From assembly GCA_045576815.1 (NCBI GenBank), contig JAZNHD010000065.1, forward strand, positions 1-56,297: DNA of 56,297 nt. The letters run 5' to 3'. The position numbers were made by a program, and so were the translations under genes. The DNA is from Eubacteriales bacterium (GTDB lineage Bacteria; Bacillota; Clostridia; Oscillospirales; CAG-272). Below, piece by piece: positions 9,881 through 55,273 of this stretch (position 1 is the stretch's first letter; each line of letters starts with the position of its first letter). The notes under the pieces are model-generated. The model worked only from the letters and a program-made list of their open reading frames with translations. It had not been told where the DNA came from and made no database searches.

Positions 9881-10000
9881 AAGAAAAGTTCCTTTAATTT
9901 TGTTATACACTATGTTAGCATAAAATTAGCGATATGTCAACTTGGAATTTTACGGCAGTATACTGTATGGAAGAAGATGCGCAAAAATGTCGCCGGTCGA

Positions 10001-10457: not shown

Positions 10458-10512
10458 GAACCCATGTTTTCAGCGTGAGAGGCTGATGTCTTAACCGCTT
10501 GACCAACGAGCC
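10438..10512 (-). tRNA. tRNA-Glu (anticodon CTC)
   Basis: Reverse complement GGCTCGTTGGTCAAGCGGTTAAGACATCAGCCTCTCACGCTGAAAACATGGGTTCGATTCCCGTACGAGTCACCA: cloverleaf, TTCGA T-loop, encoded CCA. Confidence 0.97.
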
Positions 10513-15892: not shown

Positions 15893-15916
15893 TAATAAAG
15901 TAAAGGATGTAAAAAA

Positions 15917-19578: not shown

Positions 19579-20463
19579 CTACCTCTCCTTAGCTACCGAG
19601 GGGTTCTCCCCGAAGTATTCCTTGTAGGCGCGCGAGAAGGTATAAACCGACGAGTAACCAAGTAAGCGCGCTATGCGCGTTATCGAGAGGGTATTCTCGG
19701 TGAGGAGCAGCCTTGCCGTTTCAAGCCTGCGACGCCTGTAGTAATTCATAAGGGTGCAGCCTGTAACCTCTTTAAATAAATTAGACAGGTAATTGTAATT
19801 ATATTTTGTAATCTTGGATAGCTCCGAGAGACTTTCCATACTGTAAACGTGGCTGTCGATGTAGTTCATTATGCGGTAGCAGAACAGCTCTGCCTCATCG
19901 GGATTTGCGGTATGGCGGCCGGCGGCCGTAGCCAAGGCGGCGAAGTCTCGCACAACATATATCAAAATCTCGCGCAGCATCGACTCCATAATAAGACTAG
20001 AATAAGCCTCACCCGAGCTCTCCTCTAATATGGCGCGCGAAACGATATCCGGAATGTAACCGTCGCGTATGACGCGCTTTTTTGGCGAGTGAAAGTCGAG
20101 CATAACCGAGTCAAGCTCAGCGCGCAACGCCTCATTCGTGGTATGGGCGGCGATAAAGTCGAACTTTAACGGCTCTTCTTTATCCGAGATAATCTCGTGC
20201 ACGTCACCGGGAAAGGACACGTAAATATCACCGGACGCCACCTCGGTCGGCACGTCGTTTGTGAGAATTAAGCCCCGCCCGCCGCGCACGATTGTGAGTT
20301 CGATAAAATCAAGCTGAGTGTGCTTTTCAACCACCGTATTCTCGGAGCAACACATGCGCCCAATCTGAATAAGACGCATATTTCCATACTCGCGCGCAGA
20401 GGCAAAATAGGATTTATTAACAGGGTATTTATGACGTCGGTTAACGCAAGGACTGTCTGCCAT
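19579..20463 (-). CDS. AraC family transcriptional regulator
   Basis: Cupin N-terminus; IARLLGYSSVYTFSRAYKEYFGENPS; start at ATG 20463 after an AAGGAGG RBS. Confidence 0.88.
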   Translation of the reverse strand: MADSPCVNRRHKYPVNKSYFASAREYGNMRLIQIGRMCCSENTVVEKHTQLDFIELTIVRGGRGLILTNDVPTEVASGDIYVSFPGDVHEIISDKEEPLKFDFIAAHTTNEALRAELDSVMLDFHSPKKRVIRDGYIPDIVSRAILEESSGEAYSSLIMESMLREILIYVVRDFAALATAAGRHTANPDEAELFCYRIMNYIDSHVYSMESLSELSKITKYNYNYLSNLFKEVTGCTLMNYYRRRRLETARLLLTENTLSITRIARLLGYSSVYTFSRAYKEYFGENPSVAKER

Positions 20464-21140
20464 AACAGCCTCCTTTCTGCTGTGAAAATTCCTGCGCGAT
20501 ACTCTCAAAACAAAAAAACGCTCGCACATAACCTTCAGCCACCCACATTTTATCTATTAGATTATATACCCTATCTTTCGGTTTGTCAATAAAAATGTTA
20601 TGCTTTTCTCGCCGTTTTTCCGCGAATTCTGTAAAAATGCTAAATATGTCATTAAAATTTGCTATTTAGATTATTAACCGCGTAGGCTATAATGTAACCG
20701 GAAATTTTTCCCCGAGGCGCTCTCTGCGGAGTCACGCTCAATATTGAGACCGCTCCTCGGCTGCTCTTTTTTCTTTTTTTGAGGGCTGCACTCAGCGAGT
20801 TAATCTAAAAGGCCTCGCGCGCACGCGTTTAAGCGTAATTATTATATATTTTCTTTCCTTTCCTGAGCTAACCTAACCTTCCCTTCCCTATCCTATAGTC
20901 CTTCCCCTTCCCTTCCTAAAGAGATAAATTCCGCGATGTTATCCTTGAGCGTAGAAGCGAGGGGCTTTTATCAAAGGAGCTAGAGGACGGGTTTAATCCA
21001 TAACGCATAATTCATAACGCAAAATCAGAGGGTGAGTAATTCTTCATTTTTAATCAAACCTCACGCCTTCTTGTCACCTATTATGCAACTTGCACAATAA
21101 TTATGTCACCTTTCAGGTTAAACTTTGGAAGGGTACTATA

Positions 21141-21212
21141 CTTACTTTTCGCTTTCTTTGTGCTACAATGTAAGTGTCAGGACGGAGCAATACCGGTTAG
21201 CATAGGTCCTGG
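21141..21212 (+). promoter_or_regulatory. Extended -10 promoter and 5' leader hairpin of the phage-like operon
   Basis: TG-c-TACAAT at 21161-21169 with a weak -35 (CTTACT, 17 nt spacer); GTCAGGAC...GTCCTGGC stem immediately before the AAAGGAG RBS. Confidence 0.55.
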
Positions 21213-21230
21213 CGAAAGGAGTTAAGGTTT

Positions 21231-21839
21231 ATGGCAGAAAGAAGGATGTTCTCACGGCAAATAATCGAAAGTGACAGCTTCACCGATATGCCCGACTCGG
21301 CGCGCCTTCTCTATTTCCACCTTGCGCTGCGTGCCGACGACGACGGATTTATCTCGTCTGCCAAATCAATACTCCGCATGGCAGGAGTTTCAGAGGCGGA
21401 TATAAAGTCGCTTACTGATGCGGATTTTCTTCTTCCTCTTGATGACGGTGTCTACCTTATCAGACATTGGCACGCACACAATAACATACCAAGGTCGGTA
21501 TACACGCCTTCGCGCTACGCTCATCTTCTGGAGAACTTTAAGGTTGACGGGCAAGGAAGATACGTAAGCTGCGAAAGAGCAGAGTGCGAATCGACGCCGA
21601 CGGCTGAGGACACTCAAGACGAGGATGACGACATAGTCTTTGAGTTAAAGATTGTCGAATACTTCATAAGAGCAAAATATTTCTCCTCGCCCGACAGCTT
21701 TATCGCCTACAACAAGTCGCGCGGATGGCGTGGGGTTGGCGGTGAAAACGTCAAAGAAAACTACGAAAGGTATATAGACGAGTGGGAAAAGAGCTACTGC
21801 ATAAAGCACAGTCTGCCACTGCCCTATCGGGAAATGTAA
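21231..21839 (+). CDS. Phage replisome-organizer / replication-initiator-like protein
   Basis: N-terminus MAERRMFSRQIIESDSFTDMPDSARLLYFHLALRADDDGFI and IRHW..HN..P...Y.PS, typical of Firmicute phage replisome organizers. Confidence 0.8.
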   Translation: MAERRMFSRQIIESDSFTDMPDSARLLYFHLALRADDDGFISSAKSILRMAGVSEADIKSLTDADFLLPLDDGVYLIRHWHAHNNIPRSVYTPSRYAHLLENFKVDGQGRYVSCERAECESTPTAEDTQDEDDDIVFELKIVEYFIRAKYFSSPDSFIAYNKSRGWRGVGGENVKENYERYIDEWEKSYCIKHSLPLPYREM

Positions 21840-21840
21840 A

Positions 21841-22158
21841 ATGAAAAAATTCAAGTATAGAAAGAGCCTGCCGCGCGAGATGTACTCCTACTTCATCTCC
21901 TACGATGACACTCAGGGTGCGCCGAGCTTTCAGAAGTTTGCAAAAGAGATAGGCGTAACGACAGAGGAGCTACTATCAATGAGGCAGCACAAAAGATTTG
22001 ACGAGTCATACCGCGAATGCAGCGAAATCCGAAGAGATTATCTTATTGACCGTGCGCTATCCAAGAGGTTTGACGCGTCCTTTGTGAAGTTCCTCGTCGG
22101 TGAGGAGGGCGACACCCGCGACGGAGAGGTTGAAATACGGCTCGAGGTGGTAGAGTGA
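21841..22158 (+). CDS. Probable terminase small subunit
   Basis: HTH-like PSFQKFAKEIGVTTEEL followed by an amphipathic helix; directly upstream of and overlapping TerL. Confidence 0.65.
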   Translation: MKKFKYRKSLPREMYSYFISYDDTQGAPSFQKFAKEIGVTTEELLSMRQHKRFDESYRECSEIRRDYLIDRALSKRFDASFVKFLVGEEGDTRDGEVEIRLEVVE

Positions 22159-23513
22159 TTTATCCTCTTACCGCAACGAAAAAGCAGGCTGAGTTTATGT
22201 CTGCCACAGAATCAGAGGTCCTGTTCGGCGGTGCTGCCGGTGGCGGTAAATCCTACGGTCAGGCGCTCGACGCCCTGCGCTTTGCGATAAAGCATCCTCG
22301 CTCGCGGCAGCTGATTTTGCGCCGCACATTTTCCGAGCTTGACAAGTCCTTAATCCGCACAACGCTTGAAATTTACCCACGCGGAATTTACACCTACGGC
22401 GGCACGACACACACGGGAAAATTCAAAAACGGCTCGCTTATCGACTTCGGCTATCTCGCAAGCGAGAGCGACGTCTATCAGTACCAGAGTGCCGAGTACG
22501 ACGTTATCCGTTTTGACGAGCTGACACATTTTTCCGAGGCGCAATATCTCTACCTTATATCAAGAGTGCGCGGGGCAAACCCGTATCCAAAGCAGATTAA
22601 ATCCACCACAAACCCCGGCGGCATAGGTCACACGTGGGTAAAGCGCCGCTTTATAGAAAAGGGATTTTCCGGCGAGAGCTTTATCGGTGAGGACGGAATG
22701 TCAAGAATTTTCATCTCCTCGCGAATTTCCGACAATAAATTTCTCGAAAGCGCCGACCCGTGCTACAAAAACCGCCTTCTCGCCTTGCCCGAAAGAGAAA
22801 GGCGCGCGCTCCTTTACGGTGACTGGGACGTCTTTGAGGGACAGTATTTTTCGGAGTTTTCTCACGCCCTACACGTTACCGCTCCCTTTGAAATTCCGAG
22901 GAGCTGGCGAAAATACCGAACGGTTGACTACGGTCTTGACAGGCTTGCTTGTCTTTGGATTGCCGTCTCACCCGAGGGAGTCGCCTACGTCTACCGCGAG
23001 TATTGCGAGTCCAACCTTGCGATAAGTCAGGCGGCATCAAGCATAATTGAGAGGACTCCGCACGCAGAGGAAATTTACGCTACGCTAGCCCCGCCGGACC
23101 TGTGGTCGCGCAGTCAGGAAAGCGGCAGAAGCCGCGCAACACTCTTTTCCGAATACGGCTTAAACTTCACCCGTACGTCAAATGACAGAGAATGTGGCTG
23201 GCTTGCCGTAAAGGAGCTTTTACGCGACACGGGTACGGGGGTGAGGCTAAAAATCTTTTCTACCTGCCACGAGCTTATTGAGTGTCTTCCTGCACTCACG
23301 GTGGACAAGGCACGCCCGTCCGACTGCTCGACCGAGCCGCACAGAATAACCCACGCGCCCGATGCCCTGCGCGGCTTCGCGATATATAAAAGAGCTCCCA
23401 TAGATACACCGCACAAAAGCATCAGATGGAGCGCTGATATGTGGGAGGACTACGCTATGGCAGACAGCGTCGGGCGCGAATATCTCAAAAAGAAATACGG
23501 AGAACCAAATTGA
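22155..23513 (+). CDS. Terminase large subunit
   Basis: Walker A GGAAGGGKS, Walker B IRFDE, STTNPGG coupling motif, nuclease VDYG and HAPDALR. Confidence 0.93.
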   Translation: MIYPLTATKKQAEFMSATESEVLFGGAAGGGKSYGQALDALRFAIKHPRSRQLILRRTFSELDKSLIRTTLEIYPRGIYTYGGTTHTGKFKNGSLIDFGYLASESDVYQYQSAEYDVIRFDELTHFSEAQYLYLISRVRGANPYPKQIKSTTNPGGIGHTWVKRRFIEKGFSGESFIGEDGMSRIFISSRISDNKFLESADPCYKNRLLALPERERRALLYGDWDVFEGQYFSEFSHALHVTAPFEIPRSWRKYRTVDYGLDRLACLWIAVSPEGVAYVYREYCESNLAISQAASSIIERTPHAEEIYATLAPPDLWSRSQESGRSRATLFSEYGLNFTRTSNDRECGWLAVKELLRDTGTGVRLKIFSTCHELIECLPALTVDKARPSDCSTEPHRITHAPDALRGFAIYKRAPIDTPHKSIRWSADMWEDYAMADSVGREYLKKKYGEPN

Positions 23514-25177
23514 CAGTACTTAATATGAAAAAGAAGGAGCGCGCGGACTATTTCCGCTCGCTCTACGAGGCGGCGAGGGAGGCACGCGGGGAGGAGCTTG
23601 ACACACTCGAGAGGCATATGAAGCAATACCTCGGCTCGCCCGAGATTGACGGCTCACCCGAGCCCGCTCTAACGGTGAGAAACATCACCTACGAGCTTAT
23701 TGAAAGCGAATTTTCGGCAGGTGTACCGCACTGCAAGGTCGACCCCGCCTGCTACAGCGAAAAAAGAGACCGAAACGCGCGCTCTGTTGAGAGGCTGTGC
23801 CACGCTCTGAGAGCCCGTCTTCCCTTTGAGGAATTAAACGACCGCGACGAGCGTTACACCTACGTTTACGGTGGAAGCGTGTGGTACGTCGAGTGGGACT
23901 CGGAGGGCGGCGACGGCGACGTTAAGATAATCTGCCTTTCACCCACCGCGCTCGTGCCCGAGCCGGGTGTTGCTGAGATTGAGGATATGGACTACTGCTT
24001 CCTTGAATTTCCGGCGACCGTCTCGGAGATATGCCGCCGCTACGGAATAAGCAATGCAGATATCGGCTCGCTTGAGTGTGACGCCACCCTCGGAGAGTGT
24101 GACGAGGACGAGGTTGTAAGACTTGTCGTAGGCTTTTACCGCGACGATGACGGAGAGGTCGGCAGGATTGTATTCTCGGGCGGTGTTTGCCTCTCGGACA
24201 TTCCGCGCTACTTTAGCCGCCGCGTCGGCTATTGCAAAAGCTGCGGTGAGCCCTTACCCTGCAGCTGCAAAAATCCTATGCCGAAGGAGGAGCTTATCCT
24301 CACCGAAAAGGTCGGGGACGGTGAGGTTTTTTACTACACGCCCCGCGAGTTCCCCATCGTAATCCGCAAAAACACAAGCGCTGAGCCGTCACTTCTCGGT
24401 CAGTCCGACTGCGCTATGATACGACCGCAGCAGCAGGCTATAAACAAGATTGAGTCGAGAATTTTAAAAAAGCTGCTGCGCTCGGGTGTCACCCCTGTTA
24501 TTCCCGAGGATGCAACCGTCACCCCGACGGGCTCGGTGTTTGGCGAAATTATAAGAATGAAGCCCGGCGACAGCCTCGACCGCTACGGAAAGGTGGATAC
24601 AACACCAGACGTATCACAGGACATCGAGGAAGCCGACCGACTCTACGAGCAGGCAAGGCGCATTATCGGCATATCCGACGCGCACCAAGGCATTGAGGCG
24701 AAAAACGAGTCCGGCTACGCAAGGGCTCTGCGCATCTCGCAGGCAGAGGGCAGGCTTGCCTCAAAGCGCCGAATGAAGCATCAGGCATACGCAAAGCTAT
24801 ACAGGCTTGTGTTTTTGCACTATCTTGCCTTTGCTGACACAGCACGCGAGCTTTCCTACCGAGACGAATACGGCAGAGTGCATCTCGACGAGTTCTGCCG
24901 CTACGACTTCATTGAGGGGGAGGGCGAGGGTCGCCGCTTCTCCGACGACTATCTGTTCTCGGTTGACCTCAACGGCGGCACGGAATACTCCCGAGAAATG
25001 CTCTGGGAGAAAAACCTCTTAAATCTTGAGTCCGGCACGCTCGGTGACAAGACGAGTCCCATAACGCTCTTGCGCTACTGGCAGTGTCAGGAGCGAGCGC
25101 ACTATCCGTTTGCACGCGAGATGGTGGAATACTTCAGAATGAAAATAGAAAAGGAGAATGACGATGCAAACAAGTGA
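23510..25177 (+). CDS. Probable portal protein (with Cys-rich insertion)
   Basis: Position after TerL, ~555 aa, portal-like segments (RNITYELIES, LLGQSDC..IRPQQQAINK, IGISDAHQG, ESGYAR). The TTG start overlaps the TerL stop and has a GGAG RBS. Confidence 0.75.
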   Translation: MTVLNMKKKERADYFRSLYEAAREARGEELDTLERHMKQYLGSPEIDGSPEPALTVRNITYELIESEFSAGVPHCKVDPACYSEKRDRNARSVERLCHALRARLPFEELNDRDERYTYVYGGSVWYVEWDSEGGDGDVKIICLSPTALVPEPGVAEIEDMDYCFLEFPATVSEICRRYGISNADIGSLECDATLGECDEDEVVRLVVGFYRDDDGEVGRIVFSGGVCLSDIPRYFSRRVGYCKSCGEPLPCSCKNPMPKEELILTEKVGDGEVFYYTPREFPIVIRKNTSAEPSLLGQSDCAMIRPQQQAINKIESRILKKLLRSGVTPVIPEDATVTPTGSVFGEIIRMKPGDSLDRYGKVDTTPDVSQDIEEADRLYEQARRIIGISDAHQGIEAKNESGYARALRISQAEGRLASKRRMKHQAYAKLYRLVFLHYLAFADTARELSYRDEYGRVHLDEFCRYDFIEGEGEGRRFSDDYLFSVDLNGGTEYSREMLWEKNLLNLESGTLGDKTSPITLLRYWQCQERAHYPFAREMVEYFRMKIEKENDDANK

Positions 25178-25640
25178 AATATTTGACACGGCTACCGAGG
25201 CAGAGCTCGAAGCCGAGGTGAACACAGCGAACTGCGAGGGCATAGAAGAAGCTGAATTTCTCGACACGCCCCCCGAGGTATCAGAAGTCGAGGTGGAGGC
25301 GTCAGAGACAGAGGATACGTTAGAGTCCGACCTTGACGAGCTGTCAAGAGAGTTCGGAGAGCTTTCGGGGGTCGGCTCTATCTCCGAGATTGACGGTGCT
25401 CTTCGCTACGGCGAGCTGCGCGAGCTCGGCCTTTCACCGCGAGAGGCATATCTTGCCACAAGGCCTAAGCAGATTAAGGAGAGGAGTGCGCGCGCACATC
25501 TCACTCCCGCGGCACCGAGTGCTGTGCGAAGACTCAGTCCTACCATGCCGCACAAGGAGCTTAAGATAGCACGAGAGCTATTTGAAAACCTCTCAGACAG
25601 CGAAATTGAAGCACTATACAAGAAAGTAACAAGGGTTTAA
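25158..25640 (+). CDS. Probable capsid scaffolding protein
   Basis: Very acidic N-terminus and short helical C-terminus (LSDSEIEALYKK), located between portal and capsid. Confidence 0.6.
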   Translation: MTMQTSEIFDTATEAELEAEVNTANCEGIEEAEFLDTPPEVSEVEVEASETEDTLESDLDELSREFGELSGVGSISEIDGALRYGELRELGLSPREAYLATRPKQIKERSARAHLTPAAPSAVRRLSPTMPHKELKIARELFENLSDSEIEALYKKVTRV

Positions 25641-25711
25641 AAGCCAAATTAAGCAAATATTACTTTACAAAAATAAACAATTTACCATTAACGAAAGGAT
25701 TAAACTAAAAA

Positions 25712-26773
25712 ATGATAGTTTACACAAAAGCAACAGGTCTTATCCCTCAGGCAGCAAGCCTTGAGGCACCCATCAAGATGATAATCGAAAACGAGAGCAA
25801 CATTCAGGCAAGAAAGAATTACGTTCTTGACAGGCTCTTTAACGTTGAAAAGTCCAACCGCTTCGGCGAAACTCTCGTAACCGAAACCGAGTTCAATCTC
25901 TTTAAGCCTGCCGAGGAGGGTGCTGCCGCAGAGCAGGATAACATAAGAAAGCTCACCTCGAAATTCGTTGAGCACATTCAGTACATGAAGGAGTTCAATA
26001 TCTCCGCGGAGATGATGGAGGACGCGGGCTACGGCATTGCAACCAGTGCAAAGCGCAGAATTGAGAATTTCACCAGAGCCTACTACCGTACGATGAACAA
26101 TATTGCGGCCTACGCTATCACTCGTGCATATCAGCCGACCTTCACCTACAACGGCGCAGAGCTTGACCTTACCTCACCCGACGGTCTTTCGGTTTTCAAC
26201 AACAAGCACCGCTGGGGCACCACCGGCACCTCAAGCGGTATCTTCTCGAACAAATTCTCCGGCAATATTTTCCAGACCGGCATCGAGAGCAACAGAATCC
26301 TTGACATCGACCTCCTCGAAGAAAGAATTAACTACCTTGCAGCACATATAAGAAAGGCCCCCGACGAGAACGGCGAGGCGATGGGCTACGAAGCAGACAC
26401 CATCATTCTTCCTGCCAATCAGCCGAAGGCAGAGGCGCTTATCAAGAGAATCTGCTACTCCGAGGGCAAGGTCAACACGAACTTAAACGACGTAAACCTC
26501 AACTACGGCAGATGGAACATCATCGTTCTTCCTCAGTGGATAGCAAACAATCCCGCATTTATTATGATGTCCTCCGAGGCAAACAAAAACCTTGGCGGTA
26601 ACATGTTCTTTAACCGCGTGCCCCTCACTGTGACGAACTGGATAGACCCCCATACCGACAATTACGTATGGCACGGCATATGCCGCTTCGGCGTTGGATT
26701 TGGTACGTACAAGCACATGCTCTACGCAGAGGACATGTACGAAGAGTCCGAAGACTACACCTACATGGATTAA
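25712..26773 (+). CDS. Major capsid protein (HK97 fold, Mu gpT-like family)
   Basis: 353 aa; motifs EFNISAEMMED, PDGLSVFNNKH, DENGE..GYEADTIILP, RFGVGF; AAAGGA RBS and codon bias like highly expressed host genes. Confidence 0.8.
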   Translation: MIVYTKATGLIPQAASLEAPIKMIIENESNIQARKNYVLDRLFNVEKSNRFGETLVTETEFNLFKPAEEGAAAEQDNIRKLTSKFVEHIQYMKEFNISAEMMEDAGYGIATSAKRRIENFTRAYYRTMNNIAAYAITRAYQPTFTYNGAELDLTSPDGLSVFNNKHRWGTTGTSSGIFSNKFSGNIFQTGIESNRILDIDLLEERINYLAAHIRKAPDENGEAMGYEADTIILPANQPKAEALIKRICYSEGKVNTNLNDVNLNYGRWNIIVLPQWIANNPAFIMMSSEANKNLGGNMFFNRVPLTVTNWIDPHTDNYVWHGICRFGVGFGTYKHMLYAEDMYEESEDYTYMD

Positions 26774-26777
26774 TCTT

Positions 26778-27608
26778 ATGACGGTTAAGGAAGTTTTATC
26801 AGATGCGGCGGCCATGCTCGGCATCTCTCGCATCGCGCCGGACTCGCGCTCCTTTGGTGCTATAAGGCGTGCGCTATACACAGTTTTCCGCGACACGGGG
26901 TGCGAGGCGAACGGTAAAATCCTTGCCGTTGGAAGAAAGCCCCTTACCCGTGTGAAGATTTTGCCCCACGTCTCGGGGCAGGTTGAGCGCTTTGCCGTAA
27001 CCGGTGGTGCTTATGCCTTTGAGGTTTCTGGCAAGGGAGGCTTTCTTGTGCGAGACAGGCGCGGAGAGAGACGATACTCCTTTGACACCGACGGTGAGTT
27101 TTTCACAGGTCGCACCGTAGGAGGCGGCTCGCTCGAATTTTTCGGTGAATATTCATTCGTCGTATTTAATCTATCGGACTACCCCGCCCCCGCAAACGAG
27201 GATAAATTACCCGACGGCTCCGGAGAGTGCCGTTACGAGCTCACAGAGCTCATTGGTGATTTTCTCTCGCTATCCTCGACGCCCACCGACAGAGCGGGCA
27301 AAAAAATAGACGGCATGCGTGTGGTCGGAAGCGTCATTTATCTGCCGGAGGAGTATACCGGCGAGGTATGCTTCAGCTACTTCAGACGTCCAACCTCTCC
27401 TGTCGTTGAAGAGGGCGAAACGCTCGATTTGCCGATGGAGCATGCACTCCTTTTAGCCCCGCTTGTCGGAGCGTATTTTACCGCGAGAGAGGATGCAGAG
27501 GCCTCGGCACAGTGCCTTAGCAGCTACCGCGATATGCTCGCATTGCTCCCATCGCCCGTGCGGGTTGCTCCTGCTGAGCTCTACTACTGTAAAAGCAGGT
27601 GGGCGTAA
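26778..27608 (+). CDS. Probable head-tail adaptor protein
   Basis: Follows the capsid gene; helical N-terminus and YFRRP...LDLPMEHALLL C-terminal pattern seen in podovirus-type adaptors. Confidence 0.55.
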   Translation: MTVKEVLSDAAAMLGISRIAPDSRSFGAIRRALYTVFRDTGCEANGKILAVGRKPLTRVKILPHVSGQVERFAVTGGAYAFEVSGKGGFLVRDRRGERRYSFDTDGEFFTGRTVGGGSLEFFGEYSFVVFNLSDYPAPANEDKLPDGSGECRYELTELIGDFLSLSSTPTDRAGKKIDGMRVVGSVIYLPEEYTGEVCFSYFRRPTSPVVEEGETLDLPMEHALLLAPLVGAYFTAREDAEASAQCLSSYRDMLALLPSPVRVAPAELYYCKSRWA

Positions 27609-30196
27609 TGGCGAAATCACGGAAAAACACAGCACGGGGCCTGGATTTCACCCGTACCTACGACCTATACGGCATCGGAGGCGACCTCTCGGAGCTTGTC
27701 AATATGTACGTCGATCACGACTCGGAGTATGGCGGAATAGAGACTGTGCCCGGCTTTCGTCAGATAGCATCGCTAGGTGCTGAAATTCACGGTCTATACC
27801 GCCAAAAGCTCGACACGGGTGTCGATTATTTAATTATTCACGCAGGCAGAGGACTATACAGAAAAGAGGTAGGTAAGGATGACGAGCTCGAAGAAATAAC
27901 CACCCTTTCGAGCAACGCCTCAACAGGCTTTACACTCGGAGATAGTCTCTATATTATTGACGGAGACAAAATTCTTGAGCTCCGCTCCGACGGCAGCGTA
28001 AATAACGTTGCCACAGACCCTTACATTCCCACAACCTACAAGAACGGACTCTTCTACGAGGAGCGCAACCTTCTAACGAAGAACTCGTATCAAGAATACG
28101 AGGTGGCAACAGCCGAGGAGTTTGCCTACGGCTCACCGCACCTATTATACTCAATAACAAGCCGCGTAGGACGCGAGTGCGCCGTGTCGGGAGTCGACAA
28201 AACGAAGACCGAGGCCCTTTTCGTACCCTCTTACAAGTATATTGGCGGTGTGAGATATGCCGTGACCGAGATACTGCCATACGCACTTGAGGGCTCGCTT
28301 GCGACTGAGCTCACAGTCAGCGAGGGTGTTATCAAAATCGGCGACAACGCCGTGCGAGGCTGTAAAAATCTCAGGCGGGCAATTTTACCCACAAGCCTTG
28401 AGGAAATCGGTAAATACGCCTTTGCGAGCGAGGCGAGCCTCAATTACGTAAGACTCGGATTAGGTCTTTCAAAAATCGGCGCCGGTGTCTTTGCTAACTG
28501 TCCCGAGCTTAGCAGTGTCGCCTACGAGGGCGACTCGGCACAGCTTGAAGCGATAGAGGGTAGCGCGTCCTTCTCGACAAAAACAATAGTGTATAACGTA
28601 ACCTACACCACCGTCACCGCCGCGTTTTCGACACACGGGTACGGGTTTAGACCTACACAGGTCTACATTGACGGGGTTTCACAGCCCTTTACCTTGTCCG
28701 GCTCGAACGAGGTACGCATAGAGCTTGATTACAAATCCGACCTTGAAGGAAAGCTAGTAAGAATATACGGAGTCGAGATGGTAGAAGCCGGTATGCAGGG
28801 CGAGCTTGGCGGCGACCTTGTTGCTCTTTACAAAAACAAAATTTCTCCCGAGACGGCGATTTTCGGCTGCACTCTTTCCACAGTGTTTGACGGGCGCGTA
28901 TTTCTCTCAGGCAACCCCGCGCTGCCCGGCGTGGTATTCTACTCATCCGAAACGCGCGACGGAGAAATCACCCCTCGCTACTTCGGCTCGTACGACTTCA
29001 TAAGCACCGGCAGCTCCTATCCCGTAAGCTCAATACTATCGACCGGCGACTCGCTTATAGTAACTAAATCCGGCGAGTCGGGCGAGGGCTCCGTGCTCTA
29101 TTACGGCAGAGGCAAGTCGATAATCTCGCCGCGCTCAACCCGCTATGAAAGGACACGCTCCTACGGAGTCGACGGCGGAGTAGCTCATGCTTGTGCGCTT
29201 TTCGGAGAGCCGCTCTTTGTTTCAGGAGATAGGCTTTACAAGTCCGGAGCATCAAAGAGTCTCGTCTGCGTATCGGAGCAACTTGGGGCCGAGCTACAGT
29301 CAAGCGAGAGTATATTTTCTGTTGAGTGGCAGGGGTATTTATTCCTCTCTCTCGGCAAAAAGGTTATACTCGTTGAAAAAAGAAGCACTGATGGCGGCTA
29401 CAGATTATACCCCCTTTCCGACATCGGAAGCTGGAAAAACTCGACACCGGTATATGTTTACGCAGATATTGCACACCCGGAGCTTGCCGTGTCAGAGAAG
29501 CGCGGTGAGGTCGCGTACGGAAGAGTTATGAGTCGAACAACGGAATACGGCGAAGTGCTTTACTACGTCATAGATGACGGCATTGAGGTAGCGGTTATGC
29601 CGACAGAGGAGCTGTCGGGCGGTATTTTTAACCCTGCAAGTCATGCCGTTTCAATAGGCAAGCGGCTCTATTTCGGCACCGGCTCGGGCGACGTATACCT
29701 GTTTAATAACGATTTGCGAGGTGTAGCACCGGAAAGAATAAGGGAAGGCTACGGCTTTGACGAAGAGGCTTACAAGGCTGCAATGGGAGATAAAATTCAC
29801 CCCGACTTCTACGACTTTGCAGGCCACAGAATAAGCTACTCTCTCGCGGTAGAAGACGACTATTGCGATGACATCACAGGCTATAAGCTCACCTCGCCAT
29901 TCGGTACGGTGATAACCGTGTCGGCAGACGGCACGGCGGCAGCATCCTACACGGCAGTGCGCGACGGAGAGCCGTCGGAGAGGATACTGCTTGTTACAGG
30001 CACTTTTGATTTTTCACTCCTTGATTTCTCGCTTCTTTCTCTGGCATCGGACGGCAGCGAAGCCTACATCTTGCCGGAGGAGCGAGTGCCGTGGATAAAG
30101 CACGGAGTGCACCTCGACTCAGAACAACACCGCTCGCCGCTCAAAATCAAGGCACTGTCGCTTTGCTACAAAACGGCCGGCAACATAAAAAGGTAA
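27608..30196 (+). CDS. Probable nozzle / DNA-stabilisation protein with inserted BspA-type leucine-rich repeats
   Basis: Beta-propeller-like segments (IETVPGF, FDGRVFLSGNP, RLYFGTGSGDVYLFN) interrupted by LRR_5 units (VIKIGDNAVRGCKNL, LEEIGKYAF, LSKIGAGVFANCPEL). Confidence 0.65.
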   Translation: MAKSRKNTARGLDFTRTYDLYGIGGDLSELVNMYVDHDSEYGGIETVPGFRQIASLGAEIHGLYRQKLDTGVDYLIIHAGRGLYRKEVGKDDELEEITTLSSNASTGFTLGDSLYIIDGDKILELRSDGSVNNVATDPYIPTTYKNGLFYEERNLLTKNSYQEYEVATAEEFAYGSPHLLYSITSRVGRECAVSGVDKTKTEALFVPSYKYIGGVRYAVTEILPYALEGSLATELTVSEGVIKIGDNAVRGCKNLRRAILPTSLEEIGKYAFASEASLNYVRLGLGLSKIGAGVFANCPELSSVAYEGDSAQLEAIEGSASFSTKTIVYNVTYTTVTAAFSTHGYGFRPTQVYIDGVSQPFTLSGSNEVRIELDYKSDLEGKLVRIYGVEMVEAGMQGELGGDLVALYKNKISPETAIFGCTLSTVFDGRVFLSGNPALPGVVFYSSETRDGEITPRYFGSYDFISTGSSYPVSSILSTGDSLIVTKSGESGEGSVLYYGRGKSIISPRSTRYERTRSYGVDGGVAHACALFGEPLFVSGDRLYKSGASKSLVCVSEQLGAELQSSESIFSVEWQGYLFLSLGKKVILVEKRSTDGGYRLYPLSDIGSWKNSTPVYVYADIAHPELAVSEKRGEVAYGRVMSRTTEYGEVLYYVIDDGIEVAVMPTEELSGGIFNPASHAVSIGKRLYFGTGSGDVYLFNNDLRGVAPERIREGYGFDEEAYKAAMGDKIHPDFYDFAGHRISYSLAVEDDYCDDITGYKLTSPFGTVITVSADGTAAASYTAVRDGEPSERILLVTGTFDFSLLDFSLLSLASDGSEAYILPEERVPWIKHGVHLDSEQHRSPLKIKALSLCYKTAGNIKR

Positions 30197-30344
30197 AAGA
30201 GAAATCAACCCGCAAAAAAGCGAAAAGCGTACCCCAAAAATTTAAATATTAGCGCACGGGTACCCACTTTTTGCGTTTTAGCAAAAAAACCGCGGGGCTC
30301 TTGCTTGCAAGACCCCCGCAAAAAAACAAGAAAGGAATACACAA

Positions 30345-30737
30345 ATGAAAACTAAAAAGATTTTCTCCTCGGAGCTTGACAGCTACAAGGTCAAATCTCT
30401 GCCAACAAGACCGACGGCGCCAATAGAGCTTGGTGGCGGTGGATACAGTGCAGACGAGCTTAAGACTGCGTTTGACCTGCTACCCCTTTTCGTAAATTCG
30501 CGCATAAACGACCTTGTTGACGATATAACAGCCGAGGGAAAAAACTCCCTTGCCGGCGCAATTCCCACGGGACTTGAGGAGGGGCATACGCTTTCCGACC
30601 TCTTTTCCGACGTAAACGACGGCACGCTCGCGGCAAGGCTCACCGTAGGCGGCGAATCTCTAGCCCTCGTCATAGCGAAAATCAAGGCAGCGCTTACAAG
30701 ACTTGGCGCATCGGTAGAGGAGGCGGAAAATGGCTAA
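30345..30737 (+). CDS. Phage-like hypothetical structural protein
   Basis: AAAGGA RBS; LPTRPT..GGGGYSADELKTAFD resembles N-termini of clostridial phage tail-associated proteins (recall only). Confidence 0.6.
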   Translation: MKTKKIFSSELDSYKVKSLPTRPTAPIELGGGGYSADELKTAFDLLPLFVNSRINDLVDDITAEGKNSLAGAIPTGLEEGHTLSDLFSDVNDGTLAARLTVGGESLALVIAKIKAALTRLGASVEEAENG

Positions 30738-31122
30738 ATTCGTATTTGAGCTTTTTGACGGATATGCCGAAACCTCGCTGTTTCTCCCCATTTCGGGCGA
30801 CCCCGTATTTCTTTTCTCGCCTTCACTTACGGGATATGTTACGGTGGGCGACAGAGCCTACGAGGTCACGGACGGTCGAGTTTCGATACCTATCTCTGAG
30901 CTACCCGTAGGCGACTTTTCCCCCGAGCTCATCTCAAAAAATAAAAGGTGGCTGCTGCCCTGCCTCGTTTTCGACGGAGAGACGGTAAGCCCGAAGCCAT
31001 ATGACGACGAATATATAAGGGCTCTCTCACGCGAGCTGCATGAAATGAGTAAGGAAATCGAGGCACTTATTGCTGAGGCAAAGAAAATTAAAGAAACAGT
31101 CTACGGCAAGCTGCTTTTTTAA
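30730..31122 (+). CDS. Hypothetical protein with C-terminal coiled coil
   Basis: GGAGG RBS, overlaps the upstream gene; heptad-like C-terminus. Confidence 0.7.
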   Translation: MAKFVFELFDGYAETSLFLPISGDPVFLFSPSLTGYVTVGDRAYEVTDGRVSIPISELPVGDFSPELISKNKRWLLPCLVFDGETVSPKPYDDEYIRALSRELHEMSKEIEALIAEAKKIKETVYGKLLF

Positions 31123-31147
31123 GCCGTAGAGAAAGGAATGGTACACA

Positions 31148-31831
31148 TTGAAATTTATAAAAAAATTTTTTCTTCTGATAGCTACCGTCGCACTCGTGGC
31201 ATCGCTCGGTCTCAACGCTTTTGCAAGCGAGAGCGCGGAAAACGCATCTGAGGATACAGAAAACAGCTACACGGATACCGACTCCAGCTCCAAAAATCTC
31301 GACACGGGTGGTGAGGTAAATGATACGGACGAGAACATAGACAACGCAGGTGAGAATCCCTTCGAGGTGATATTTCAGCTGATATGCAACTACTCCGGAG
31401 AGATATTCTCCGCGCTCGCCTTTTTAGGAACTCTTATCGTTGCTCACTTTTACAAGCGGGGCATGCTGCCGGCACTGAGAAGCGCGCTCGGTAACGTAAG
31501 CACGGCACTCGGAGCAGCATCCGACAAGACGGAGGAAGCATTACTCCTCATAAAAAAGAAAACCGAGACGATAGACAGTATGCTTGAATACTCGGGGGGC
31601 GTAATTGACGACGTTGCAGGCTCCCTTGAGCGAGTAGAATCCGAGCTAAAGGCAGTAAAGGAGAGTCGCGACGAGCGAGCGGCCTACAAAACCATTATGC
31701 TCTCGCAGGTTGATATGCTCTACGATATTTTCATGTCTTCGGCTCTTCCGCAATACAAGAAGGACGAGATTGGCGAAAGAATAGGAGCGATGAGAGAGGA
31801 GCTGAAGCTCTGCGATGAAAGCACAAAATAA
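31148..31831 (+). CDS. Membrane protein: signal peptide, acidic linker, TM helix, coiled coil
   Basis: MKFIKKFFLLIATVALVASLGLNAFA signal-like N-terminus; second hydrophobic helix IFSALAFLGTLIV; TTG start after AAAGGA. Confidence 0.7.
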   Translation: MKFIKKFFLLIATVALVASLGLNAFASESAENASEDTENSYTDTDSSSKNLDTGGEVNDTDENIDNAGENPFEVIFQLICNYSGEIFSALAFLGTLIVAHFYKRGMLPALRSALGNVSTALGAASDKTEEALLLIKKKTETIDSMLEYSGGVIDDVAGSLERVESELKAVKESRDERAAYKTIMLSQVDMLYDIFMSSALPQYKKDEIGERIGAMREELKLCDESTK

Positions 31832-32186
31832 CAGCACTTTTGTAAGGTTTGCTTTACATATTCTTGCTCTTTCGCTTTGCATTTTGCCGCCGGCGCTCGC
31901 GACACTTTATTATTTTCCTCTTTGGCAGGTTCGCGGAGGTTTTGCGCTTTTATCGGGCGGAGCGGTGCTTTTGTTAACTCTTTCGGCAATCCCCCTAATG
32001 AAGCTGATTACCGCTAAAATTCGCTCAGCGGCAAGCTACGTTATGTGGAGCATAATCTTCATTATCTTCTTTCTTCTTCGCGAAATAGCCGACGAGATGA
32101 CAGTAATCTCCTTTTTCGGTGCTGTCGGCAATCTTGCCGGTGCTCTAATCTTTAAAATAGCAAAGGGCGGTGATGACGACGGATAA
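31815..32186 (+). CDS. Small 4-TM membrane protein (holin-like candidate)
   Basis: 123 aa with four hydrophobic segments; overlaps both neighbours. Confidence 0.7.
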   Translation: MKAQNNSTFVRFALHILALSLCILPPALATLYYFPLWQVRGGFALLSGGAVLLLTLSAIPLMKLITAKIRSAASYVMWSIIFIIFFLLREIADEMTVISFFGAVGNLAGALIFKIAKGGDDDG

Positions 32187-33000
32187 AAACACCCCCACCC
32201 TTGACGGACTCCTGACCGAGCGTCGCGCCGCCTCCTTTATTGCCGAGTGCGGCTCAAAAATCGTCGCCGCGTTAACGGTTATTCTCTCTGCGACGGTAAT
32301 TTTTGCCGACGTCACCTTTGCCTCTGTGGGCACAGCAAGCTACACCTCCACCCTACTCGTTCTGCTCGTTTCAACATATCTTATGTATTTTTCACTTGAA
32401 GACGTTGGTGAGCGAGCAGGAGAGTCGTGTGAAGAGGCTCGCGCAGTATACACACGGTATGAAGAGGTTAAGGCCAAGATAAAGCCCGATGAAATAGCCT
32501 CTCTCCGTGAGTTTCTCGCCGATTATTCCGCAAAGGAGCTTCTCTTTCGAAAAAAGACGATACTTGCCGCAGGGGGACTTACCGAGGAGGATTTTCAAGC
32601 CTTTTTATCCGGAAAAGCCTACCCCCGTGCAGAAAAATCGGTGCTGAAAAGAGCAAAGCGGCAGCGCGCCGCGCCGCTTACGCCAAAGATACTGCTTTCA
32701 GGTGTTGAGAACAGCTCTCAAAGCGAGCTCGAAAACCCCGAGCGACACAAGCTCGCAGGTCTCTTTATAAGGCTTATCCCCACAAGCATATGCATGCTCT
32801 TCACCGTCTCGCTGGCCCTCTCTGCAAAGGACGGGCTTACCGCCTCGGCCGTTATAGACGGCATTTTCAAGCTCTCCTCGCTGCCGCTTGCAGGACTTCG
32901 AGGCTATCGGGCCGGATATATTTTTGCCCGCCATACCCGCACAGCCTGGTGCGAGGTTAAGACAAGGATACTCGAAGCGTATCTCGCAAATACGCCATAA
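32170..33000 (+). CDS. Membrane protein (2 TM, soluble loop, 2 TM)
   Basis: Hydrophobic helix pairs at both ends; last gene before the terminator. Confidence 0.7.
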   Translation: MMTTDKNTPTLDGLLTERRAASFIAECGSKIVAALTVILSATVIFADVTFASVGTASYTSTLLVLLVSTYLMYFSLEDVGERAGESCEEARAVYTRYEEVKAKIKPDEIASLREFLADYSAKELLFRKKTILAAGGLTEEDFQAFLSGKAYPRAEKSVLKRAKRQRAAPLTPKILLSGVENSSQSELENPERHKLAGLFIRLIPTSICMLFTVSLALSAKDGLTASAVIDGIFKLSSLPLAGLRGYRAGYIFARHTRTAWCEVKTRILEAYLANTP

Positions 33001-33005
33001 ATAAA

Positions 33006-33030
33006 AAGACGGCAGCTCTTCTGCCGTCTT
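33006..33030 (+). terminator. Hairpin ending the phage-like operon
   Basis: AAGACGGCAG-CTCTT-CTGCCGTCTT immediately after the 33000 stop; short U-tract. Confidence 0.6.
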
Positions 33031-33058
33031 GACAAATTACAGCAAGGCGTGCTATAAT
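33029..33058 (+). promoter_or_regulatory. Sigma-A promoter of the helicase gene
   Basis: TTGACA-18 nt-TATAAT with an extended TG. Confidence 0.8.
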
Positions 33059-33087: not shown

Positions 33088-35484
33088 ATGCGTTACGACA
33101 GCAAAAAAAACCGAATACTCGTAACCGACACCGAGCTCGTCTCCATTGCCCGCCGCGGTGTTGCGGCAGCACTCTCCGAGGATAGTGTAGACAAAGGGCC
33201 GCCCGCTGTTATAAGAGCACTCATTGAGGGTGAGCCCGAATATATAAATTATGATTTTACCGTCGGCAGTTGGGACTTCACCCTTATCGGCGCGGTGTAC
33301 AACTTCTACTTTGATATCGCCACCCGTGTAGCAAAATTCGACCTCTACTTATCCGTAGAGAGCCCTTCGCGCCCGCGCCGTGAGGAGACCGAGCTTTTAC
33401 GCGGCAGAGCCTTCATTTTATCCGAGGCGCTGCGCACAGTATACGGTTTTGAAAGCACTCACGTAATGCTACACTACGTAAATACGAGGAGCGGTGAGGT
33501 AGACACGGCGGAGGAAACAATTGAAAAGACGAAGCTCTCTGCATTCTGGAAAAAATGTGCCGCAGCACTCTTAACATTCGGCAAGCCGGAGGTCGAGCGC
33601 GTGACGGTAAGACTCCCGTCTATTAAGAATATGCGTTTTCCGTACCCGAAAATTCGTGACGGTCAGCGCACGTTTATCCACGCGGCATACCGCGCACTCT
33701 CAAGACACGGCAGACTCTTTGCCGAGGCTCCGACCGGTACGGGTAAAACCGTTGCGGCGCTCTACCCTGCACTGCGAGCTGTCGGTGACGAAAAGTACGA
33801 CAAGATTTTTTATCTGACACCAAAATCAACGATTGCCGAGGCGGCGGCAGATTGCCTTGCTCTATTCTCCGCGCAGGGCGTTAGGCTGCGCTCTATTATT
33901 ATCACGGCAAAGGAAAGAATTTGTATTGGCGGCGGTGTATGCCGTGAGGACAAAAGGCTTTGCTCGAATGCTAAGCTGACCCATCTGCCCGAGGCAGCTC
34001 TTGCACTGTATAATTTTGACAAGGCGGTTGTCAGGGGCGAGGACGTCAGGTGCGTAGCAAGAGAATACAAGGTGTGCCCCTACGAGCTGTCGCTCACATA
34101 CGCAGAGCTTTGCGACGCGGTGATATGCGACGAGAATTATCTTTTTGACCCGCAGGTTTATATCCGCCGTTTTTTTGACACGGGTGAGCGCTTTGCAGTC
34201 CTCGTTGACGAGGCGCACAACCTTGCGGAACGGGCAAGAGAGATGTACTCCGCATCTCTTTCTACAAAAGAGCTTTCGGACACGCCTCTTTTAAATGTCC
34301 TTGGCGAGCACTCAGCACTTCGCACCGTCATAGAAGAAGCGAAAGTCGCACTCATTGACACCCTCTTTCCTTACGTTAAGGATGAAATTCGTGACACGGG
34401 TGGGGGAAAACACGAGGGTGCTGCCCACACTCGTGAGGTTCCGCCAAGGCTCTATACACTCGCCGACGCGCTATTAATGGCGACAGAGCGCGAGCTCTTT
34501 GACACACTGTCAGCCTCGGATAACGAGCGTGGCGAGCGAGTCCGACTCCTGCGCGAGCTTTGCTACGACCTCTCTCATTTTCAGAAAATTCTCGAAAAAT
34601 TCGACACGGGGTACGAGATGTTCATCTTTTTTGAGGACGGAGAGCTCACAGTGCGTCTATTCTGTCTTGACACGGGTATAGTCCTTTCCGACAGACTTTC
34701 GCATGTGGGCGGTGCTGTACTTTTCTCCGCAACACTCTCGCCTATCGAATACTATAAATCGGTTCTTGGCGGTGACAGGAGTGACGATACCGTCGTTGCC
34801 GACTCGCCTTTTGATAAATCTCAGCTGTCGGTGTCTATAGTCGACAGCGTCAGCACCCGTTTTTCCGAGCGAGAGGAGACTACCCTCGCGGCCCTGCGCG
34901 TTATAGCAGCGACGGTGTCGGCAAGACGGGGGAACTACATAGTTTTCTCTCCCTCGTTTGCCTACTCCGACACACTCGCAAGAGCCTTCAAGGCAAAATA
35001 TCCTAAGCTGCGCACACTCGTACAAAGGCGTAATATGTCATACGCGGAGCGCGAGGAATTTCTTAAAGCTCTCGACGCACCCGACGGCTCGTATCTCTTA
35101 GCCTTTTGCGTTATGGGCGGTATTTTTGCCGAAGGTATTGACCTCGTGGGTGATAAGCTCATAGGAGCGGTTGTCGTCGGCATTGGTATTCCTCAACTTT
35201 CCTACGAGCGCGAGGCCATCGCAGCTTACTATCAGGATAAGTATGAGATGGGCAAGGAATACGCCTACCTCTACCCCGGAATGAACCGAGTCTTTCAGGC
35301 GGCCGGCAGAGTTATCAGGCGCGAGGATGACAGGGGCGTTATAGTTCTTATCGACGACCGCTTCCGCGACCCGATTTATAAAAGAAGTCTGCCGACTCTT
35401 TGGTCGGGCGTGCATTTTATAGGAAATCCAAAGGAGCTAAAGGAAGAGCTCGACGCCTTCTGGAAGGCGGGAGATGAAAAATAA
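33088..35484 (+). CDS. Rad3/DinG (XPD-family) Fe-S ATP-dependent DNA helicase
   Basis: EAPTGTGKT, Fe-S cysteines (CIGGGVC..C..CPYE), DEAHN, SATL, FAEGID, QAAGRVIR, DDRF. Confidence 0.93.
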   Translation: MRYDSKKNRILVTDTELVSIARRGVAAALSEDSVDKGPPAVIRALIEGEPEYINYDFTVGSWDFTLIGAVYNFYFDIATRVAKFDLYLSVESPSRPRREETELLRGRAFILSEALRTVYGFESTHVMLHYVNTRSGEVDTAEETIEKTKLSAFWKKCAAALLTFGKPEVERVTVRLPSIKNMRFPYPKIRDGQRTFIHAAYRALSRHGRLFAEAPTGTGKTVAALYPALRAVGDEKYDKIFYLTPKSTIAEAAADCLALFSAQGVRLRSIIITAKERICIGGGVCREDKRLCSNAKLTHLPEAALALYNFDKAVVRGEDVRCVAREYKVCPYELSLTYAELCDAVICDENYLFDPQVYIRRFFDTGERFAVLVDEAHNLAERAREMYSASLSTKELSDTPLLNVLGEHSALRTVIEEAKVALIDTLFPYVKDEIRDTGGGKHEGAAHTREVPPRLYTLADALLMATERELFDTLSASDNERGERVRLLRELCYDLSHFQKILEKFDTGYEMFIFFEDGELTVRLFCLDTGIVLSDRLSHVGGAVLFSATLSPIEYYKSVLGGDRSDDTVVADSPFDKSQLSVSIVDSVSTRFSEREETTLAALRVIAATVSARRGNYIVFSPSFAYSDTLARAFKAKYPKLRTLVQRRNMSYAEREEFLKALDAPDGSYLLAFCVMGGIFAEGIDLVGDKLIGAVVVGIGIPQLSYEREAIAAYYQDKYEMGKEYAYLYPGMNRVFQAAGRVIRREDDRGVIVLIDDRFRDPIYKRSLPTLWSGVHFIGNPKELKEELDAFWKAGDEK

Positions 35485-55128: not shown

Positions 55129-55131
55129 ATA

Positions 55132-55243
55132 TTTCCTTTCACATCCGGACTTTCGCCGTCGGTCGCGGAATTTCACCGCGTCAGGAATTTATTCCTCGTA
55201 GACTGTACTACCGGTACGGAATTTCACCGCTTCCCAAGAAAAA
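55132..55243 (-). promoter_or_regulatory. FMN riboswitch (RFN element)
   Basis: Minus strand reads GGTGAAATTCC..ACCGGT.GTA.AGTC..CGA...GGTGAAATTCC..ACCGAC.G....AGTCCGGATG.GA, the two-T-loop RFN consensus. Confidence 0.93.
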
Positions 55244-55273
55244 CTTTACATTTATTATATATGATTTGTAAAA

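Follow-up and report, generated by a model that had tools for sequence, protein, structure and literature searches.

Elements resembling gene transfer agents (GTAs) have been characterised in very few lineages, with a podovirus-like example from gut Firmicutes first reported in 2026 (PMC12946183, Nat Commun 2026). The text of that report describes FpGTA of Faecalibacterium prausnitzii as a 10.5-kb chromosomal operon encoding small terminase (TerS), large terminase (TerL), portal, scaffold and major capsid proteins along with proteins of short-tailed phages, present in all 12 Faecalibacterium genomes examined, and a second operon of 5.5 kb (baseplate, fibre, receptor-binding protein, holin and endolysin) that was not detected in seven of the 12 strains. 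FpGTA particles were 40 nm in size, had no visible tails and contained 8.4–8.9 kb of packaged host DNA, and GTA-like packaging was also reported for Ruminococcaceae, Oscillospiraceae and Christensenellaceae (PMC12946183). Here we describe a podovirus-like cluster of packaging and particle genes on contig JAZNHD010000065.1 of Eubacteriales bacterium (assembly GCA_045576815.1, GTDB CAG-272), where a stretch of 56,297 nt, referred to as a whole as the window, was analysed.

RcGTA- and Bartonella-type particles are long-tailed and come from Alphaproteobacteria, whereas the cluster in the window is podovirus-like and belongs to a member of the Clostridia. It shares with those GTAs the character of a phage-derived chromosomal cluster of structural genes of ~11–15 kb, inherited vertically and without integration or replication genes (a description of the older systems that draws in part on PMC12946183), and its clade-wide conservation recalls BaGTA in Bartonella.

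We consider it probable that positions 21841–33000 represent the remnant of a temperate podovirus, domesticated to the point of retaining particle genes only, kept vertically and acting as a GTA similar to FpGTA; the most likely role of these genes would be that of a podovirus-like GTA of the FpGTA kind. The observations carrying this reading are the identities and order of the genes, their conservation, their embedding in the chromosome and the selection on them. A first-pass annotation, made from the letters of the window without database searches, had proposed a vertically inherited GTA or domesticated particle. The observation behind it was confirmed: 13 co-oriented open reading frames (ORFs; o1 to o13 below) occupy 21231–33000 on the + strand, none of them with an internal stop in the ORF listing, and neighbouring frames overlap or are separated by short gaps, the widest being 72 nt (25640–25712) and 149 nt (30196–30345). 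The interpretation is supported in part, in that the cluster is genus-wide, tracks its host and lies at the same locus in a large clade, while the word GTA still denotes a proposed function. The conserved element comprises ~11 kb of structural genes between host genes.

Likened by description and not by sequence, the element and FpGTA are both chromosomal operons of the same architecture, found genus-wide in gut Clostridia, and the text of PMC12946183 describes no self-replication module for FpGTA. The genus-wide conservation of TerS, TerL, portal, scaffold and capsid genes with a short-tail operon fits that description. Unlike FpGTA, with its two operons and lysis genes, the window has all its recognisable genes in one locus, and no lysin was found there; and whereas particles and packaged DNA of FpGTA were demonstrated experimentally, the present cluster is known from its genes alone. 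A nozzle bearing leucine-rich repeats (LRRs) and a head-only derivative, both features of the present element, are not mentioned in the text of PMC12946183, which gives the FpGTA capsid and portal as RCH50849.1 and RCH50851.1 and places FpGTA I and II at positions 2536737–2546346 and 2672270–2677176 of CP030777. A full-text literature search returned no further paper on FpGTA-type elements. The first-pass statement that this lineage had no characterised equivalent has been overtaken by the 2026 paper, and its claim to novelty is therefore reduced. The LRR insertion in the nozzle, the reduction of the fibre gene to its N-terminal part and the head-only species are new findings. The best 80 of 563 TerL loci included no Faecalibacterium record, and TerL and capsid searches started from two faecal phage contigs returned the names Feifania, Gemmiger, Intestinibacillus, Ruthenibacterium and Oscillospiraceae, never Faecalibacterium.

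Family matches, structure searches and orthologue comparisons bore out the TerL, TerS-like, portal, capsid, adaptor and nozzle-like genes of the first-pass annotation, with weak matches for the TerS-like gene and position as the guide to the scaffold (Table 1). All 15 TerL sequences compared, among them six loci from other families of the order, share G25–S33, D121/E122, D258, D315 and D403, which we take to be the Walker A, Walker B and nuclease residues; the P-loop and acidic residues are also invariant in 23 species. The stop codon of the TerS-like gene (o2) overlaps the TerL start, and its orthologues stand directly upstream of TerL in 21 loci. The portal ORF is given from its longest-ORF start (23441); an ATG at 23525, just past the TerL stop, is the likelier start. 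Between portal and capsid genes lies o5, a position held in 19 loci, and we infer from this position and its acidic composition alone that it is the scaffold. None of the nine ORFs after the portal had a family match naming a function in Pfam or PHROGs.

The capsid protein (o6) has a mean column identity of 75% among its orthologues (n = 17). Its structure model is of low confidence (predicted local distance difference test score, pLDDT, 57.8), and all nine Foldseek matches at E <= 0.001 were phage or GTA capsid entries, with SU10 ranking first (6.9e-5) and the RcGTA capsid entries 6tsu and 6tb9 among them; this search with a low-confidence model is the one test of likeness to RcGTA. The identity of o7 as an adaptor was first suggested by an Atlas lead and then by a PF24175 scan of its orthologues; the copy in the window does not itself reach PF24175, and its start was fixed by orthologue alignment. 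Profile searches with capsid and adaptor against PDB sequences gave nothing usable.

For the model of the tail nozzle (o8), Foldseek ranks 1–19 were all podovirus tail entries (tail, nozzle or portal-tail complexes of T7, Kp9, LME-1, P22, Sf6 and SU10), with a best E of 4.4e-14 and template modelling (TM) scores of 0.61–0.65 on P22, Sf6 and Pa223 targets, the fold being like that of T7 gp12, Kp9, P22 gp10, Sf6 gp8 and the SU10 nozzle. The module order of portal, scaffold, HK97-fold capsid (low-confidence model), adaptor and nozzle is thus that of SU10/T7/P22-like podoviruses, including an adaptor of the SU10_adaptor family and SU10 as best capsid fold, and the short-tailed particle that the first-pass annotation had deduced from the adaptor and nozzle order is borne out. 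Unlike those podoviruses, the element has no other part of a phage genome, and it has a nozzle with an LRR-containing insertion of ~255 residues and a fibre stub. The insertion spans approximately residues 165–420 (nt 28092–28858), with an LRR_5 match of 4.4e-14 at residues 223–323. On either side of it, residues 4–164 and 421–865 align with a 750-aa nozzle-position protein of L179, a 41.8-kb IMG/VR viral contig with the same module order and further genes. Since ~255 LRR-bearing residues replace ~80 residues of the L179 protein between the aligned parts, the nozzle has acquired an LRR insertion, which is likely the cell-binding part. Repeats of the LRR_5 type match many other ORFs in related genomes.

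Downstream of the nozzle, o9, o12 and o13 have counterparts in L179 that follow its nozzle-position gene in matching order. The L179 counterpart of o9 is the 1160-aa fibre-like protein that comes after that gene, and o9 orthologues in the genus are ORFs of between 116 and 1122 aa, so that the 130-aa copy in the window looks like the stub of a fibre. A holin-like or ejection function is conceivable for o12, and o11 to o13 together could be ejection or lysis proteins.

Table 1. Genes of the cluster, its terminal hairpin and the flanking host genes in the window
Feature	Position	Strand	Evidence
o1, DnaD-like replisome-organiser, N-terminal fragment	21231-21839	+	phrog_5708 1.4e-42, profile positions 1-187 of 263; no Pfam match
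o2, small-terminase-like (TerS), 105 aa	21841-22158	+	Weak: phrog_3064 'terminase' 1.3e-7; Pfam GP3_package 0.0024, below cut-off
o3, large terminase (TerL)	22155-23513	+	Terminase_3 2.8e-11; Terminase_6N 3.1e-8; phrog_979 3.9e-51
o4, portal protein	23441-25177	+	phrog_156 1.7e-22; P22_portal below cut-off
o5, acidic 160-aa protein in scaffold position	25158-25640	+	Isoelectric point 4.4; no family match
o6, major capsid protein, 353 aa, HK97 fold, Mu gpT-like	25712-26773	+	gpT-family head protein of Bacillus phage PK1 matched by blastp (3e-9) and by profile search (1.6e-10)
o7, head-to-tail adaptor, SU10 type	26778-27608	+	PF24175 SU10_adaptor in 9/15 orthologues, best E 6.2e-7
o8, tail nozzle, 865 aa, with inserted leucine-rich-repeat domain	27599-30196	+	AlphaFold model, pLDDT 84.2, predicted TM score (pTM) 0.76
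o9, N-terminal anchor-like part of a fibre-like protein	30345-30737	+	Residues 1-97 align with N-terminus of 1160-aa L179 protein, E 2e-6
o10, 130-aa protein	30730-31122	+	No family match; orthologues in 5 loci at E < 1e-10
o11, hydrophobic N-terminus and acidic low-complexity stretch	31148-31831	+	Hydropathy scan; orthologues in 11 loci
o12, small protein with four hydrophobic segments	31815-32186	+	34% identity, E 2e-20, to 125-aa L179 protein at same position
o13, 276-aa membrane protein, last gene of the cluster	32170-33000	+	24% identity, E 7e-10, to 302-aa L179 protein at same position; hydrophobic segments
Palindromic, G+C-rich hairpin ending the operon	33006-33030	listed on -, T-run after it there	10-pair stem, 6 G-C pairs
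Rad3/DinG-type helicase, host flank outside the element	33088-35484	+	Helicase_C_2 1.3e-34; DEAD_2; rad3 subfamily
Topoisomerase III, host flank	17386-19494	-	Topoisom_bac 2.9e-81
AraC-family regulator, host flank	19579-20529	-	HTH_18 2.8e-20

The element lies among ordinary host genes on either side, as the first-pass annotation had it: topoisomerase III and the AraC-type regulator upstream, and downstream the helicase, which 113 of 121 genus genomes possess and which is therefore counted as a host gene, followed by glyQS and other housekeeping genes. The topoisomerase also precedes the cluster in seven relatives' loci (L018, L035, L036, L037, L048, L050 and L062), and the G+C content is about 0.52 both in the cluster and in the host stretch at 33–45 kb. 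The expected hairpin was found after o13, followed at 33029–33058 by a promoter match for the helicase (12/12 of consensus); the single upstream promoter proposed at first fared less well, matches there reaching 9–10 of 12 consensus positions. The 700 nt (20530–21230) that separate the AraC-type gene from the start of the cluster contain no ORFs, have pyrimidine-rich 'ttcc/cctt' runs at ~20845–20920 and gave no Rfam match. Rfam likewise placed no family in or beside the cluster.

Scans of the 13 ORFs and their flanks with Pfam and PHROGs recognised no integrase, repressor, tail tube, tape measure or endolysin, and flanking direct or att-like repeats were absent beyond short scattered matches of 14–24 nt; the genome's only two Phage_integrase matches sit on other contigs. 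The absence of phage functions beyond structure noted by the first-pass annotation stood in these respects, and what it missed was the DnaD-like, replication-type o1. No gene for the element's own replication, integration or lysogeny control was recognised, with the caveat of this fragment, which abuts TerS in this genome only. Although co-oriented with and abutting TerS, o1 is lineage-specific: its sole match among 20 relatives' loci was in L026, a phage-like second copy, and in L040, from G067, the nearest relative with a full cluster among those examined, TerS has no such counterpart before it and is preceded by nucleoside-salvage genes and a membrane protein. By these sequence comparisons o1 is not part of the conserved element, and the element is one gene shorter than the 13-gene span first proposed.

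Conservation was assessed across the genus. In a first sample, 34 of the 36 genus genomes other than that of the window carried TerL, as did 16 of 25 genera sampled across the order. The larger genus sample comprised 121 genomes, all of metagenome-assembled genome grade; tallies of identity tables and codon-position counts were made by hand. A TerL match at E <= 1e-20 was present in 115 of the 121 genomes and in all 44 high-quality ones, and the six genomes without a match had a completeness of 66–86%. An orthologue-like TerL, 62–73% identical to that of the window, was present in 113 genomes (G115, at 45%, and G130, at 48%, have only distant matches), and an internal stop occurred in one best TerL match only (G121). 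The C-terminal half of the nozzle was found in 106 of the 121 genomes, compared with 113 for the host helicase. In 20-kb stretches searched with tblastn and profiles, the order from TerS to o13 was conserved across the genus, at identities to the window of 62–72% for TerL, 40–56% for the portal, 48–57% for the capsid, 24–33% for the adaptor, 25–35% for the nozzle and 29–43% for o13; host genes in the same stretches were 71% (topoisomerase) and 44–52% (helicase) identical.

Read as descriptions and not as tests, since related species are not independent samples, the co-variation and locus tallies follow the host. Where the helicase shares at least 46% identity with that of the window (71 genomes), TerL identity was 66–73% and reached at least 67% in 69; among 36 genomes with a helicase below 46% and an orthologous TerL it was 62–71% and reached at least 67% in four only (G079, G033, G069 and G074). 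Similarly, all 13 genomes with a glycyl-tRNA synthetase (GlyRS) at least 88% identical had TerL at 68–73%, and seven of nine with a GlyRS at 87% or less had TerL at 67% or less, the exceptions being G005 and G034. A comparison centred on G035 was uninformative: GlyRS was 71–76% identical to every other genome and TerL 61–74%, the closest being G016. The first-pass annotation had proposed looking for the cluster at the same locus in relatives, and it was found there: 42 of the 71 nearer genomes carry TerL and helicase together on a single contig and on the same strand, 4.5–18 kb apart. In 27 of the remaining 29 they lie on different contigs, where fragmentation is a possible cause, and in G027 and G085 they are truly non-adjacent. 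Other housekeeping flanks were topoisomerase III and nucleoside-salvage genes in L036 and L040, with thymidine kinase, DeoC, phosphopentomutase, cytidine deaminase and uridine kinase between topoisomerase and TerS in L036, and pyr genes in L020.

Selection was gauged from G112 and G125, the most similar pair available and both members of the head-only group described below. They differed in TerL at 100 of 1362 nt, distributed 80/12/8 over codon positions 3/1/2, and in the adaptor at 101 of 843 nt, distributed 61/19/21. Both skews are far from even and point to selection. Taken together, these comparisons support vertical inheritance of the cluster within the genus under purifying selection.

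Relatives outside the genus suggest where the element may have come from. TerL relatives of 43–58% identity occur in other families of the order, and among the best 80 of 563 loci those at 46–60% included records named Agathobaculum, Butyricicoccus, Intestinibacillus, Monoglobus and others, often with a nozzle homologue 2–7 kb downstream of TerL. Many contigs of ~36–45 kb belong to the TerL and capsid families of two faecal phage contigs, and TerL relatives at 61–69% to one faecal phage contig (L033) lie on contigs of ~36–38 kb, some labelled Caudoviricetes. In IMG/VR, 25 loci had capsid matches, at up to 54% on contigs of 5–21 kb and at 44–45% on contigs reaching 30–44 kb. Viral contigs of such sizes make a gut phage family of ~35–45 kb with this structural module the likely source, and the extra genes that phage relatives carry in the same module order fit descent from a larger phage. 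One such extra is a giant ORF between the portal and capsid genes (L179 492–8285, 2597 aa; L026 3–9515, more than 3171 aa), which matches phrog_14770 only, a family of unknown function, and which the domesticated clusters lack at exactly that junction; PHROGs found unknown-function families only on L179 and L026.

The same phage relatives, together with the DnaD-like gene abutting TerS, would also be expected if the cluster were part of an active temperate podovirus, or a prophage acquired independently and integrating repeatedly at one site. We regard this as very improbable. The locus holds ~11 kb of structural genes between housekeeping genes, with no integrase, att repeat or bounds, repressor, complete replication gene or lysis module; in a collection of 50,697 phage records only three had capsid matches, at most 27% identical (the best TerL match there was 48.5%), and the best IMG/VR capsid relatives were on short contigs; and identity tracks the host.

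Under the GTA interpretation we infer particle formation, random packaging, release and delivery as follows. The operon would be expressed in a sub-population of cells, procapsids would assemble on the portal, and the terminase would fill them by headful, probably with cellular DNA, because no phage replication or excision function was recognised that could supply phage DNA. Closure of the portal by adaptor and nozzle would follow, giving a very short tail whose LRR insertion would likely bind the cell, and release would need lysis, by o11–o13 or by genes elsewhere in the genome.

Several observations weigh against this interpretation, besides the non-independence of related species noted above. 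The TerS-like protein has an apparent helix-turn-helix stretch, judged by eye from the sequence, and sequence-specific packaging may therefore apply. Pfam and PHROGs gave no endolysin or holin family match and no recognisable lysis enzyme in the cluster. No RNA sequencing run containing the locus is listed; four DNA runs contain part of the stretch, in shares of 0.07–0.40. In the family the distribution is patchy: 27 of the 201 genomes sampled match the capsid profile, and these fall into 17 of 97 genera; it is universal in this genus (3/3 in the family sample) and in one other (3/3), and patchy elsewhere. Five genomes from four of those genera have capsid and nozzle matches 2–3.5 kb apart on one contig; TerL is matched ~3 kb past the capsid gene in G151 and G246, at a distance of 18–28 kb in G150 and G191, and on a separate contig in G294. 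Deeper in the genus, none of the 36 genomes has the cluster beside the helicase: in G014, G082 and G035 TerL and helicase share a contig at a distance of 75–244 kb, and in G016 the cluster adjoins carB, dihydroorotase and phosphoribosyltransferase genes, of which the dihydroorotase has homologues in G035, G032 and G004 that are not beside TerL. The synteny of helicase and glyQS is itself lost in the deeper genomes, and the loss does not tell rearrangement from mobility.

Variants within the genus weigh in the same direction. Six head-only species (G111, G112, G123, G125, G126 and G141) have TerS, TerL, portal, o5, capsid and adaptor genes followed directly by the helicase, and keep TerS to adaptor under purifying selection, with intact frames at 74–96% (TerL) and 38–87% (adaptor) identity to G112. 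Full-length nozzle and o13 were not found in the genomes of G111, G112, G123, G125 and G126, nor was the C-terminal half of the nozzle in G112, G123, G125, G126 and G141, with a query that was positive in 106 genomes as the control. In G140, G103 and G128 the nozzle ORFs measure 450–595 aa and the TerL-helicase spacing is shorter; full nozzles are mostly ORFs of about 880–990 aa. Delivery through this tail would therefore be dispensable in part of the genus, and it follows from the head-only species that loss of this tail need not entail loss of the packaging half. Diverged second copies also exist in some genomes (e.g. G004 and G036), among them more diverged TerS-TerL-portal copies (L023, L026; G004:C26:4642–5661) with TerL at 65% to the window, and in G004 a second capsid-profile match (E 3e-132) on another contig. 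Some of the signs that the first-pass annotation had named as speaking against its own reading were thus encountered in part: patchiness at family level, tail loss or shortening in a sub-clade, and the capsid relatives at 44–45% in viral contigs of 30–44 kb.

These variants bring the element close to capsid-forming phage-inducible chromosomal islands (cf-PICIs), which have their own TerS, TerL, portal, capsid and connector and no complete tail. The likeness, packaging and head genes without a complete tail, is greatest for the six head-only species. A capsid and packaging module could accordingly have been domesticated for a function other than tail-mediated transfer, such as borrowing, as a helper-dependent capsid-forming element in the manner of cf-PICIs, the tails of podoviruses that co-reside in or infect the cell, interfering with related phages, or forming tail-less DNA-filled capsids. 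Third-position skew and intact frames in the head-only species, the shortened nozzles, the 130-aa fibre stub of the window, the phage-like copies in some genomes of the genus and the greater conservation of head than of tail genes (TerL and capsid against nozzle) would all agree with this. Unlike cf-PICIs and other satellites, however, the locus has no recognised integrase, regulator or regulatory switch, replication initiator or replication module; the element looks immobile, being fixed in place in 42 genomes and co-diverging with its host; the nozzle, and with it the tail half, is kept in 106 of 121 genomes; and searches of five head-only genomes turned up no nozzle homologue available for borrowing. 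We therefore think this account rather unlikely.

Possible signs of decay also occur in places. Nozzle ORFs of G134 and G138 carry stops, and in G014 and G082 the order is permuted, o5 to o13 preceding TerS, TerL and portal, with the break at the portal/o5 junction, where many species have an extra ORF (e.g. 234 aa in L020). Together with the truncated replication-gene fragment o1, the stop in the G121 TerL, the tail loss in a sub-clade and the shortened nozzles, this could indicate a functionless defective prophage remnant whose deletion is merely still pending. Such a remnant is improbable in our view, given intact frames in 112 of 113 orthologous TerL genes at 27–38% amino-acid divergence, invariant catalytic residues and codon-position skews that point to selection; moreover, these genomes are small (1.2–2.6 Mb), and small genomes are expected to purge useless DNA.

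A bolder picture, which we offer as a tentative and somewhat doubtful possibility, is that the genus, with more than 120 sampled species, carries throughout a domesticated podovirus particle whose nozzle has captured a host-like LRR as its cell-binding part, whose fibre has been cut down, and which one sub-clade has stripped to a selected, tail-less TerS-to-adaptor module. If true, DNA-filled capsids would be useful to the cell even without a delivery device of their own, and might protect DNA for uptake by competent relatives or dock onto the tails of other phages.

Elsewhere in the window, a gene of the chloramphenicol-acetyltransferase family (PF00302 3e-52) lies beside a gene of the small multidrug-export family (PF06695 1e-37) at 15254–16501, upstream of the topoisomerase. 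The window also contains an FMN riboswitch (55129–55245, - strand, 100.6 bits), a tRNA-Glu(CUC) gene (10441–10512, - strand) and, at 31–2523, a gene for an 830-aa protein with Listeria/Bacteroides-type repeats (TIGR02543 6.3e-30) that is probably a surface protein. The 406-aa ORF at 8690–9910 (- strand) encodes a protein of the Npun_F2552/ferredoxin family and is not tuf.

Returning to the GTA reading, the full, shortened-nozzle, head-only and permuted variants separate the packaging half from the delivery half and so provide a ready-made test of what selection acts on. The cluster would be a second element of the kind first reported in gut Firmicutes in 2026, with a gene-by-gene anatomy, carried by nearly all species of a large genus, as yet uncultured, of ruminant and human guts. 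DNA exchange by way of such particles, passed down vertically, would then seem to be common in gut Clostridia.

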